NCBI GenBank assembly: GCA_049314715.1
Contig: JBMOEL010000002.1
Coordinates: 1-38,874 of the forward strand
From: Rickettsiales bacterium
GTDB lineage: Bacteria > Pseudomonadota > Alphaproteobacteria > Rickettsiales > UBA3002
Length of the DNA stretch: 38,874 bases
Reading direction: 5' to 3'
The notes under the pieces are model-generated. The model was not told the origin of the DNA and ran no database searches. It saw nothing but the letters and a program-made list of their open reading frames with translations. Shown here piece after piece: positions 12,480 through 26,586 of this stretch (positions are counted from its first letter, which is position 1; each line of letters starts with the position of its first letter). A program made the translations under genes and the position numbers.

Positions 12480-13438
12480 TAGCTCTTACGAGTGACAACG
12501 TAGCTTGCTAATGCACGCAGCGAATCAGCGCGGTTATCGAATGGCGAGAGGTGCTCGATTGCTTGTTTGGCCAGCGTGTTGGCTTGTTCGCGCGCGCGTT
12601 CAATACCAAGCGCGCTAATCAAGGTGGCTTTGCCTTTAGCTGCGTCTTTCTTCACGCCTTTGCCCGTGCTGGTGCGTGTGCCCTCAACGTCCAGCAAGTC
12701 GTCGGTAATTTGGAAGGCTAAGCCCATATCATGCGCATAGCGCGAGAGGCGTGAACGCATCGCGTCTGGCGCTTTGCCCAAAATCGCGCCGACTTCGCAC
12801 GACACGGCGAAGAGTTCACCCGTTTTGAGGCGCTGGAGGCGAATCACTTCATCCACCGACATGGTTTGATGCTCAGCATCCAGATCCATCATCTGCCCGC
12901 CGACCATACCGCGCACGCCCGATGCGCGTGCCAGCGAACGAATCAACTCGCAGCGCACGTTGGCGTCCGCATGCACGCTGGGGTGCGAGAGCACTTCGAA
13001 TGCGTAGGTAAGAAGCGCGTCACCCGCGAGAATCGCTGCGGCTTCGCCGAATTGTTTATGACAGCTTGGTTTGCCGCGACGGAAATCGTCATTATCCATG
13101 GCGGGCAAATCGTCATGCACTAGTGAGTAAGTGTGCACGAATTCAATCGCTGCGGCGGTCATCATCGCCGCGTCGGGATTCACGCCGAAGAGGTTCGCAC
13201 TTTCCACGGTGAGGAATGGGCGCAAACGTTTACCACCCGCAAGCGCGCTATAACGCATCGCCTCCATCACTTTGGTTTCACCGCGCATTTCCACTTCGCC
13301 CGTGTCACTTTCGGTTTCGCGGCTATGCAGCGAGATGACCTTATTCGCCATTGCCAGATTGCTTGGCAGTAAATCGTCCATCACGCGGTCGAGCTTTTCG
13401 GAAATTTCGGCTAATGATTTTTGTAAATTGGCTGACAT
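12479..13438 (-). CDS. ispA: Farnesyl-diphosphate synthase (geranyltranstransferase)
   Basis: GGKRLRP, HDDLPAMDNDDFRRGKPS, FQITDDLLD. Confidence 0.96.
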   Translation of the reverse strand: MSANLQKSLAEISEKLDRVMDDLLPSNLAMANKVISLHSRETESDTGEVEMRGETKVMEAMRYSALAGGKRLRPFLTVESANLFGVNPDAAMMTAAAIEFVHTYSLVHDDLPAMDNDDFRRGKPSCHKQFGEAAAILAGDALLTYAFEVLSHPSVHADANVRCELIRSLARASGVRGMVGGQMMDLDAEHQTMSVDEVIRLQRLKTGELFAVSCEVGAILGKAPDAMRSRLSRYAHDMGLAFQITDDLLDVEGTRTSTGKGVKKDAAKGKATLISALGIERAREQANTLAKQAIEHLSPFDNRADSLRALASYVVTRKS

Positions 13439-13440
13439 GA

Positions 13441-13701
13441 TTATTCCTTTGAATCAAATTCACTGACACCCAACGCGCCATCCGCACCTTTGGTGATTTT
13501 CTCGACTTTCAATTTCGCCTCGTTCAGTTTTTTGAGGCAGTGGTCGCGCAATTGCGCACCGCGTGTGTAGTCGGTAATCGACTTTTCCAAATCGGTCTGC
13601 CCAGACTCCAGCCCGCGCACGATTGTTTCCAGCTCCTTGAGGGCTTGCTCAAAGCTGAGGTCTTTCAACGCATCGGGGGATTCAGCGGCGGCTTTAGCCA
13701 T
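13441..13701 (-). CDS. xseB: Exodeoxyribonuclease VII small subunit
   Basis: SFEQALKELETIVRGLESG...LE; upstream of ispA. Confidence 0.95.
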   Translation of the reverse strand: MAKAAAESPDALKDLSFEQALKELETIVRGLESGQTDLEKSITDYTRGAQLRDHCLKKLNEAKLKVEKITKGADGALGVSEFDSKE

Positions 13702-13828
13702 GGATTTCCTTATATTTAAGAGCGGCTAATATACGTATTTTTCGTTTTTAATCAACGGGGATAGTGGTGGTATCCACATACAGCCAATACTAGAATTATC
13801 GAATAAATACAATCTATTAAAATTCTAC

Positions 13829-13857
13829 TTGCAACTCATTATTACTTGCAATACATC
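13829..13857 (+). promoter_or_regulatory. Promoter overlapped by a Fur-box-like inverted repeat
   Basis: TTGCAA-CTCATTATTAC-TTGCAA (13829-13851) is an imperfect palindrome. TTGCAA-N17-TACATC fits -35/-10. Confidence 0.55.
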
Positions 13858-13863
13858 TTCCGC

Positions 13864-13919
13864 TATCAATTCTGTGTCTCTTATACGCCCTGCGCTTTCA
13901 CTAGCGCGGGGCTTTTTTT
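13864..13919 (+). ncRNA. Candidate small regulatory RNA (~55 nt)
   Basis: Lies between the predicted promoter and an intrinsic terminator, with no ORF. CAATTCTGTG (13867-13876) is complementary to the sdhC RBS. Confidence 0.5.
13887..13919 (+). terminator. Rho-independent terminator
   Basis: GCCCTGCGCT-ttcact-AGCGCGGGGC (10 bp, one G.U) followed by T7. Confidence 0.75.
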
Positions 13920-13936
13920 ATGCTACATAGCCCGCC

Positions 13937-15289
13937 ATGTTTGATTCACTTTCAAAACGTCTGAGCGCATCCTTTGACAAACTTCGTAGTCGCGGCACCT
14001 TGAGTGAAGCGGATGTGGATGCAGCGTTGCGCGATATTCGCATGGCGTTGATTGAGGCGGATGTCGCCTTGCCCGTTGCCAAAGAATTCATCGCCAGCCT
14101 CAAAGAAAAAATCGTCGGTGAGAAAATCGTTGCGAGTGTTTCACCCGGTCAGATGGTTGTGAAGCTGGTGCATGATGCGCTGGTGCAATTGCTTGGCAGT
14201 GAGACCGCAGAAATTAATTTGCACACCTCCCCACCTGCAGTGATTTTGATGTGCGGTTTGCAAGGTTCGGGCAAAACCACCAGCACGGGTAAACTCGCCA
14301 AACGCCTCAAAGAAAAGCAGCGCAAGAAAGTATTGGTCGCCTCGCTCGATATTTACCGCCCTGCCGCACAGGAGCAGCTGGCAACCGTTGCGAAGGCGGC
14401 GGATGTAACGTCGCTGCCGATTGTTGTAGGCGAAAAACCTGAAACTATCACTATGCGCGCGCTGCAGATGGCGCGCACCGAAGGTTACGACGTGCTGCTA
14501 CTCGATACCGCAGGTCGTTTGCATATTGATGATGTCTTGATGGACGAGCTGAAGGCCGTGCGCGATTTGGCAAAACCAATCGAGACATTGTTGGTTGCGG
14601 ATTCGTTGACGGGACAAGATGCGGTGAATATCGCCAAGGCGTTTCATGAGTCGATTGGTGTGACGGGTATTATTCTCACACGTCTGGATGGTGATGGGCG
14701 TGGTGGTGCGGCACTGTCGATGAAACATATTACCGGTCAGCCAATTAAATTCGCCGGTATGGGCGAGAAGCTGGATGAGTTTGAAGTTTTCCACCCCGAG
14801 CGCATTGCCAGCCGCATTCTCGATATGGGTGACGTGGTGAGCTTCGTAGAAAAAGCTGCCGAGAATTTTAGCGAGCAAGACGCCAAAGCAGCAATGGAAA
14901 AAATGCAGTCGGGCAAGTTCGATATGAACGACATGCTGCAGCAGATGAAACAAATCCAGAAAATGGGTGGCATGGGCGCGATGCTCAATATGCTGCCGGG
15001 TGCTGCTAAAATTCAAGAAGCGATGAAAGGCCAAAGCATCGATGAAAAACGCATCAAGCATCAAGAGGCGATGATTTTGTCTATGACCAAGGCAGAGCGC
15101 GCTAACCCGAATTTACTTAATGCTTCCCGCCGCCGCCGCATCGCGATTGGTGCAGGGCGCACGGTGCAGGAGTTGAACCAGCTCATCAAGCAGTACCAGC
15201 AAATGGAAACCATGATGAAGCAAATGAAGAAAATGGGCATGAAAGGCTTGGCCAACCCAGCGAATCTCAAGCGATTATTTGGGGGTTAG
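13937..15289 (+). CDS. ffh: Signal recognition particle protein Ffh
   Basis: GLQGSGKTT, DIYRPAA, DTAGR, RLDGDGRGG and Met-rich M domain. Confidence 0.98.
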   Translation: MFDSLSKRLSASFDKLRSRGTLSEADVDAALRDIRMALIEADVALPVAKEFIASLKEKIVGEKIVASVSPGQMVVKLVHDALVQLLGSETAEINLHTSPPAVILMCGLQGSGKTTSTGKLAKRLKEKQRKKVLVASLDIYRPAAQEQLATVAKAADVTSLPIVVGEKPETITMRALQMARTEGYDVLLLDTAGRLHIDDVLMDELKAVRDLAKPIETLLVADSLTGQDAVNIAKAFHESIGVTGIILTRLDGDGRGGAALSMKHITGQPIKFAGMGEKLDEFEVFHPERIASRILDMGDVVSFVEKAAENFSEQDAKAAMEKMQSGKFDMNDMLQQMKQIQKMGGMGAMLNMLPGAAKIQEAMKGQSIDEKRIKHQEAMILSMTKAERANPNLLNASRRRRIAIGAGRTVQELNQLIKQYQQMETMMKQMKKMGMKGLANPANLKRLFGG

Positions 15290-26175: not shown

Positions 26176-26211
26176 CATGGAAAATATTAAAAAATATATC
26201 ACAGGATTGTC

Positions 26212-26586
26212 ATGAACGAGCGCCCTCTCTCGCCCCATCTACAAATCTATCGCCCGCAGATTTCCTCCGTCACCTCCATTTTCCATCGCATCAGCGGAAT
26301 TGTTCTTTCCATCGGCGCGGCCTTTATGGTCGCGTGGCTGTGGGCTGCGGCCTATGACTCTAGCTATTTTGTGATGTGGCGCGGGTTTTTCGGCTCTATT
26401 CTTGGGCAAATCATGCTGGTTGGCTGGTCGGCGGCGTTTTTCTACCATCTGGGTAATGGCCTGCGCCATCTCTGGTGGGATACAGGTCATGGGTTTGACC
26501 TCAAAACTGCCGATAAAACGGGCTATCTCGTTTTTGGATTCACGGCACTAGCCACCGTTATCACGTGGCTCATTATCTGGAGTTAA
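26212..26586 (+). CDS. sdhC: Succinate dehydrogenase cytochrome b556 subunit
   Basis: RPLSPHLQIY, SIFHRISG, HLGNGLRHLWWD. Confidence 0.97.
   Translation: MNERPLSPHLQIYRPQISSVTSIFHRISGIVLSIGAAFMVAWLWAAAYDSSYFVMWRGFFGSILGQIMLVGWSAAFFYHLGNGLRHLWWDTGHGFDLKTADKTGYLVFGFTALATVITWLIIWS

Follow-up and report, generated by a model that had tools for sequence, protein, structure and literature searches.

The window analysed here is a 38,874-nt stretch of a 1.78-Mb genome (G000). Two divergent genes in it, xseB and ffh, are separated by a 235-nt spacer that holds the whole of a compact element at 13829-13919: a promoter overlapped by a palindrome, about 25 nt without stable structure, and a hairpin followed by a run of T (Table 1). 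The 11-nt centre of the palindrome, CTCATTATTAC, occupies 13835-13845 and its second TTGCAA arm 13846-13851; the TTGCAA-N11-TTGCAA palindrome overlapping a TTGCAA-N17-TACATC promoter, to which a first-pass annotation had drawn attention, is where it was said to be. Transcription would start near 13863 (± 2 nt). The hairpin has ten pairs, eight of them G-C, and precedes seven T residues; the predicted fold of the 58-nt RNA has a free energy of -22.1 kcal/mol (z = -5.45). Since xseB lies on the minus strand, no plus-strand gene terminates at this hairpin, and the earlier description of a strong terminator pointing away from xseB with nothing to terminate holds.

Table 1. Features of the xseB-ffh spacer and of the candidate sdhC target, in coordinates of the 38,874-nt window
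Feature	Position	Strand	Remarks
xseB	13441-13701	minus	PF02609
Promoter: -35 TTGCAA 13829-13834, 17-nt spacer, -10 TACATC 13852-13857	13829-13857	plus	read from sequence
Palindromic operator, 21 bp, 9-3-9, putative Fur-alpha-type box over -35 and spacer	13830-13850		matrix score 20.6 bits
Predicted small RNA, ~57 nt	13863-13919	plus	R2 model 64.9 bits, E = 4e-12
Seed region	13867-13881	plus	invariant core CUGUGUCUC 13872-13880; genus-specific 5' part CAAUU 13867-13871
Intrinsic terminator, hairpin 13887-13912 and U7 13913-13919	13887-13919	plus	fold and covariation
ffh	13937-15289	plus	SRP54 domains
Candidate sdhC mRNA target site CACAGGAUUG	26200-26209	plus	10 bp with 13867-13876 CAAUUCUGUG, one G.U
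sdhC, cytochrome b556 subunit, first of sdhCDA(B)	26212-26586	plus	TIGR02970, 122.5 bits vs cut-off 52.3

At the gathering threshold, Rfam models gave no match in the whole window; at E values up to 10 the locus gave only sub-threshold matches driven by the terminator, the best reaching 25.7 bits where the gathering score is 50. A tRNA and tmRNA search found none. Two ORFs of 32 and 33 aa cross the terminator; a peptide reading was rejected because the pairing of the hairpin is kept and its sequence is not conserved. Metatranscriptome contigs from two runs of the same study gave no hit over 13400-14400, which counts neither for nor against transcription. Immediately before the operator, within 13790-13828, A/T-rich sequence is enclosed by an inverted repeat, AGAATTAT ... 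AAAATTCT; the close relative G003 keeps the two arms, and the middle is variable. On the minus strand a scanner predicted a promoter, TTGCAA-18-TAGAAT, at 13822-13851, the -35 of which is the second palindrome arm; its use would place the divergent xseB-ispA operon under the same Fur operator as the small RNA.

The only close relative with a finished genome, G003, is 85% identical over the spacer. The promoter with its palindrome, the stretch AUCAAUUCUGUGUCUCU and the hairpin through the ffh AUG are identical in the two genomes; they differ in the 5 nt that follow the -10 and in the 5 nt that precede the hairpin. A covariance model built from these two sequences (R1) added four copies from other genera, each close to ffh, and 40 family genomes were then searched with a model of six sequences (R2). 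The best full-length R2 match was inspected in 21 genomes, of which 15 contained the 9-mer CUGUGUCUC and six did not; nine further genomes gave only partial, terminator-type matches. By the covariance models, the element is present in 15 of the 40 genomes and in 8 of 13 genera, and the other 25 genomes have no convincing copy. The core CUGUGUCUC is identical in all 15 homologues, mostly inside AUUCUGUGUCUCUC; the hairpin after it, unrelated in sequence from copy to copy, leads into a run of U. The 10-nt seed that had been put forward earlier is conserved in part: its CUGUG lies in the invariant core, and its CAAUU part is genus-specific. All 15 homologues are preceded by a promoter of the geometry TTGCRA, 17-18 nt, TAnnnn. 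The -10 hexamers are weak; a generic promoter scanner passed over the plus-strand promoter of the element because it demands a T at the sixth position of the -10. In 13 of the 15 loci the divergent upstream neighbour is xseB, which was not found in those of G017 and G012.

R2 found a single copy in G000 and no paralogue. In a sample of 151 genomes from across the order, none of the 143 outside the family carries the element, and the two model matches there lack the core. Second-tier model matches (eight in the family, two outside) proved to be ordinary gene terminators without it. A scan of the contig collection for the seed plus a T-run was also made; among the 80 matches listed, three were confirmed by the covariance model. 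Three weak model matches, L049 (G050), L054 (G021) and L062 (G048), have in common AACG..GAT(T/C)T..GTCTCGC followed by a terminator. They share a gene context that is not that of the sRNA, with no Fur-type operator and neither xseB nor ffh nearby, and may represent an unrelated small RNA or a far-diverged cousin.

In a model-guided alignment of the 15 homologues, nine of nine stem pairs vary on both sides and 97.7% of the cells are paired. None of 500 shuffles reached the covariation score or the percentage paired, eight of 500 reached the number of pairs changed on both sides, and the covariation signal disappeared when the partner columns were slid. The rows are all distinct, so the homologues are not assembly duplicates of one sequence. 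An alignment of this kind leans to the structure of its own model, and because it is fitted in this way the covariation mainly shows that each copy has a good terminator of its own. MAFFT followed by RNAalifold on 14 homologues predicted no pairs, which we attribute to misalignment of the divergent hairpins. Folded singly, all 15 sequences give one strong 3' hairpin and a largely open 5' part. The seed core is predicted to be mostly unpaired, with weak helices of 3-5 bp that are not conserved.

A 21-bp palindrome of the form 9-3-9 starts at the -35 in all 15 homologues. We built an operator matrix from the sRNA promoters of 13 more distant relatives, outside the genus of G000 (symmetrised consensus TGCAAATGATAATCATTTGCA), and scanned G000 with it. 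Among 129 sites of at least 9 bits, the palindrome of the window ranks second. The top site, at contig 133:1898 (20.8 bits), lies upstream of a gene for a 67-aa DUF2061 membrane protein; the third and fourth (20.0 and 18.1 bits) overlap one another on contig 18 and stop 8 nt short of feoA-feoB, genes identified by Pfam. At the feoB loci of relatives, the best site scores 17.6-26.1 bits and is located 253-303 nt before feoB, just before feoA; the operator is present at feoA in eight of the nine relatives' loci that include upstream sequence. Since a matrix made from sRNA promoters also matches feoA promoters, the palindrome is, as judged by motif, the Fur box of this family. Its consensus includes the AATGATAAT..ATT core that has been reported for Fur sites (PMC1698941), and feoAB is described among the Fe-Fur-repressed genes of Caulobacter (PMC3751524). 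Other leading sites in G000 precede genes of obscure role, such as those for the DUF2061 protein and an ankyrin-repeat protein. An 813-aa ORF on contig 18 (15219-17663), divergent from the Fur-boxed feoAB, has no Pfam match. The genome has one FUR-family gene (contig 56, 3369-3728), the best NCBIfam match of which is the ferric uptake regulator (101 bits, below the cut-off of 146), and it encodes hfq (PF17209, 102.7 bits); both genes, whose presence had been named as a check in the first-pass annotation, are there. The element thus combines a putative Fur operator over its promoter with a terminator and U-tail in a genome that encodes hfq, as do the proteobacterial iron-sparing sRNAs.

Possible mRNA targets were ranked within G000, where gene starts were called crudely. 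Of the 1762 ORFs called, 1681 had sufficient upstream sequence and were scored by the longest uninterrupted duplex that the 19-nt seed region forms with positions -30 to +15, a single G.U being allowed. Sixty start regions pair over at least 8 bp, 13 over at least 9 bp and seven over at least 10 bp. These seven are hemA, sdhC, ctaD, sucB, mreC and two ORFs of 130 and 90 aa, and the earlier caution that a 10-mer match by itself can occur by chance was well placed. The hemA start pairs over 11 bp, with ACACGGAAUUG abutting the AUG; the gene encodes 5-aminolevulinate synthase (TIGR01821, 646 bits vs a cut-off of 339). The sdhC duplex previously described, 10 bp with one G.U, is confirmed; its target site covers the AGGA 6-9 nt before the AUG and ends 2 nt before the AUG at 26212, and sdhD and sdhA lie downstream. 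Ranked by duplex energy in 45-nt windows among the 1681 start regions, sucB is first, ctaD second, a 2Fe-2S ferredoxin (fdx) fourth, hemA 24th and sdhC 61st; in 170-nt windows sdhC ranks 171st of 1762. In G000 alone, sdhC is a good target and not an outstanding one. The ctaD gene, for cytochrome c oxidase subunit I (contig 17, from 13774 downward), begins with a His/Asp-rich N-terminal extension, MTHHDHHDDHHDH, and His-rich ctaD starts are also seen in relatives.

For the comparative analysis, orthologues of six candidates were taken from the 14 other sRNA-bearing genomes, their starts were anchored by homology, and each window from -60 to +25 was scored against the seed of its own genome. As a control, one random permutation of the 19 seed positions was applied to all genomes, and this was repeated 1000 times. 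Pairing of at least 8 bp was found for hemA in 12 of 14 genomes, a count reached by none of the 1000 permuted seeds (mean 1.2 genomes), and for sdhC in 9 of 15, again reached by none (mean 1.0 genomes); in 8 of the 14 relatives the sdhC start region holds an 8-11-bp complement to the genome's own seed. hemA is the best-supported of the predicted targets, ahead of sdhC. For the original proposal this means that the core of the seed is conserved in relatives along with its complementarity to the sdhC ribosome-binding region, and that sdhC outperforms permuted seeds across genomes in spite of its modest energy rank in G000; the place of first target passes to hemA. The element thus has a conserved seed, predicted to be mostly unpaired, that is complementary to the mRNA starts of genes for iron-using proteins, sdh among them.

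The other candidates did not behave as conserved targets. ctaD reached 8 bp in 3 of 15 genomes, as did 185 of the 1000 permuted seeds, which is not significant; sucB did so in 1 of 12 (803 of 1000), its site being lost even in G003; and fdx was marginal, with 2 of 14 genomes (514 of 1000 permuted seeds reached this count and 53 of 1000 the summed length). Because sucB, ctaD and fdx fail the comparative test, either the conserved regulon is small or the scan misses some of its members. Among 136 unrelated ORFs of the same loci, 11 paired over at least 8 bp, and three of these are ctaC. This gene (COX2, first of the cytochrome oxidase operon) has start-codon complements of 11, 10 and 8 bp in G004, G041 and G006 (regions L099, L104 and L102), and several genomes of genus g9 start ctaC with AUGACACAG. 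It is a possible third target, seen in 3 of 15 genomes as the best of several candidate starts and without a permutation control.

The hemA and sdhC sites vary among genera in their offsets and in the parts of the seed that they use. For sdhC, G000 and G003 have the site CACAGGAUUG, which the 5' half of the seed matches; other genera have GAGGCACA(GAA) or GGGAGACACA across the Shine-Dalgarno region, and there the invariant core is the pairing partner. In genus g9, hemA starts with AUGCAGAAU.. and its site tracks the seed flank, UGAUUCUGU pairing with GCAGAAUCA in G047 and G042 and GAAUUCUGU with GCAGAAUUC in G041. Among 21 family genomes without a convincing sRNA, hemA pairs over at least 8 bp in six, a figure inflated by taking the best of all 15 seeds. 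This contrast between genomes with and without the sRNA is suggestive; the genomes are kin and the events not independent, and as a consequence of this relatedness the counts overstate independence.

Taken together, these observations make it probable that 13863-13919 is the gene of a trans-acting sRNA, about 57 nt long, that works by base pairing; its promoter would be occluded by the Fur operator of the family, and its targets would be hemA and sdhC. When iron is plentiful, Fe-Fur would sit on 13830-13850 and the RNA would not be made; when iron is scarce, it would be transcribed. The product would consist of an unstructured 5' seed (..AUUCUGUGUCUCU..) followed by the terminator hairpin and U-tail, the usual handle for Hfq. 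The seed would pair with the ribosome-binding or start-codon region of the mRNA for hemA, the first step of heme synthesis, and also with that for sdhC, the heme-b subunit and first gene of the succinate dehydrogenase operon. Such pairing would block the initiation of translation and so spare iron. The transcription start, Fur binding and the iron response, the use of Hfq and repression by pairing are all predictions from sequence.

The position of the element raises another explanation, already considered in the first-pass annotation, in which the RNA is a cis-acting leader or attenuator and transcription begun at the Fur-box promoter continues into ffh whenever the hairpin fails to stop it. 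Close spacing would suit it: 17 nt separate the U-tract from the ffh AUG in G000 and G003, ffh has no obvious Shine-Dalgarno sequence, and the distance between the sRNA and ffh is at most 66 nt in seven of the 15 genomes (15, 15, 33, 51, 52, 54 and 66 nt). In five others, however, it is 235, 250, 750, 789 and 1113 nt, and in three ffh lies outside the examined locus, one of these being uninformative because of a contig end. Neither an obligate 5' UTR position nor a competing structure was found; no anti-terminator or competing fold is predicted or conserved in the 15 homologues, and their conserved part is instead an unpaired stretch of 9-14 nt, typical of a seed. Complementarity to the seed occurs at none of 13 ffh starts, which served as a control for which permutation is not informative. 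A -10-like TGcTACATA 7 nt before the ffh AUG could moreover give ffh a leaderless transcript of its own. We consider a role as ffh leader very unlikely. Still less credible, to the point of being nearly negligible, is a chance conjunction in which an ordinary terminator or insulator without any RNA function happens to lie beside a palindrome. Terminator-like sites are no more frequent at 13000-15000 than in shuffled sequence (3 vs 2.9 expected), and 10-bp matches do arise randomly, as the seven start regions in G000 illustrate. Chance would nevertheless have to account for a 9-mer that is invariant over eight genera beside a hairpin that drifts with compensation, for an operator that ranks second genome-wide by an independent matrix, for target complementarity above that of all 1000 permuted seeds, and for 15 homologue rows that are all distinct and not assembly duplicates.

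A third explanation keeps the sRNA and its Fur-family operator and changes the signal (manganese, as for Mur, or peroxide or zinc) or the main job, with the pairing to hemA and sdhC secondary; we hold it to be unlikely, with more to be said for it than for the other two. The Fur-alpha box resembles the Mur box, and in some alphaproteobacteria 'Fur' is described as a manganese regulator (PMC1698941); the Fur protein of G000 falls below its NCBIfam cut-off, and the top operators in this genome other than that of feoAB precede genes of obscure role. Against this, the iron-uptake operon feoAB bears the operator in G000 and in eight of nine relatives and belongs to the Fe-Fur-repressed set described for Caulobacter (PMC3751524), and the conserved predicted targets are a heme-synthesis gene and the gene of a heme/Fe-S enzyme. 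Iron rather than manganese as the probable signal is argued for here only by the association with feoAB.

Several observations concern the start of ffh itself. The sequence TGcTACATA at 13921-13929, ending 7 nt before the AUG, resembles an extended -10. In G010, TTGACA-N17-TATCAC overlaps the U-tract of the sRNA and likewise stops 7 nt short of the ffh start codon. A promoter embedded in the terminator of the sRNA may give rise to a leaderless ffh mRNA. In three genomes without the sRNA, the region upstream of ffh (L008, L013 and L015) contains 3-4 spaced copies of (A)TGACA(A/G) within 50 nt of the AUG.

Our preferred reading of the predicted trans-acting sRNA is that it is a new member, specific to its lineage, of the class of Fur-repressed iron-sparing sRNAs, with hemA and sdhC as conserved predicted targets. 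The comparative evidence from 15 genomes, the operator at feoAB and the sdhC pairing in 9 of 15 support, at the level of sequence, the parts of the earlier suggestion of an independently evolved RNA of this class acting on sdhC. With RyhB, PrrF1/2, NrrF and FsrA as they are described (PMC11005374, PMC3751524), it shares a Fur-box promoter, a small size, an intrinsic terminator with a U-tail and a genome that has hfq; and, as with the RyhB-type sRNAs, its seed spans the sdhC ribosome-binding site. Unlike the RyhB group, it has no sequence or structure match in Rfam, forms one hairpin in about 57 nt, is confined to one alphaproteobacterial family and has hemA, the ALA synthase gene, as its best conserved target. 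To our knowledge, enterobacteria are without ALA synthase. Independent origins of iron-sparing sRNAs are on record for gamma- and beta-proteobacteria, Firmicutes and cyanobacteria. IsrR of Staphylococcus, described as iron-repressed, and the iron-repressed IsaR1 of cyanobacteria are likewise independently evolved iron-sparing sRNAs; they differ from the present RNA in coming from unrelated lineages and having unrelated sequences, and IsrR is not known to need Hfq.

Within the Alphaproteobacteria, RusT of Caulobacter crescentus is also induced by iron starvation and associated with Hfq (PMC11005374). It differs in its length of 118 nt, its four stem-loops and its lolA-xth locus, and it is described as controlled by NtrYX, with no Fur site and with mostly TonB-dependent receptors as targets (PMC11005374). 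Compared with RusT by its description only, the new RNA does not belong with it, having about 57 nt, one hairpin, the xseB-ffh locus and a Fur-type operator. That no sRNA is known in the Fur regulon of Caulobacter is 'intriguing' in the words of the RusT authors (PMC11005374). In the searchable literature, outside which many subscription papers lie, RusT was the only iron-responsive alphaproteobacterial sRNA found, and it is not Fur-controlled; the same literature yielded nothing relevant on a Fur-regulated sRNA in Rhodospirillales or Alphaproteobacteria, or on an iron-sparing sRNA with ALA synthase as target. Irr, a Fur-family protein of Rhizobiales, also ties iron status to iron-using enzymes (PMC1698941) and to heme synthesis. 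It differs in being a protein repressor that acts on DNA, the new element being a predicted RNA. With one FUR-family gene in G000, the sRNA could fill the role of Irr post-transcriptionally.

The further-reaching claim, that this is the first sRNA in an alphaproteobacterial Fur regulon, that its main conserved job is to shut down hemA together with succinate dehydrogenase, and that it serves as an RNA substitute for Irr, seems to us evenly poised between right and wrong. If true, it would supply the 'negative arm' of the Fur regulon that was sought without success in Caulobacter. A Fur-box sRNA in Alphaproteobacteria would extend the list of RNAs that have converged on sdh, and the addition of ALA synthase as a target would tie iron sensing directly to heme synthesis without Irr. 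With a 57-nt RNA, a 21-bp operator and two short target sites, the system is easily testable and suited to heterologous reporters. Its hosts, from a freshwater habitat, are known mainly from metagenome assemblies, and the depositors' labels on the records that bear the element are loose: 'Rickettsiales bacterium', the name attached to the genome analysed here, is one of several, and others are given as 'Azospirillum sp.' or as 'Azospirillum brasilense' MAGs.
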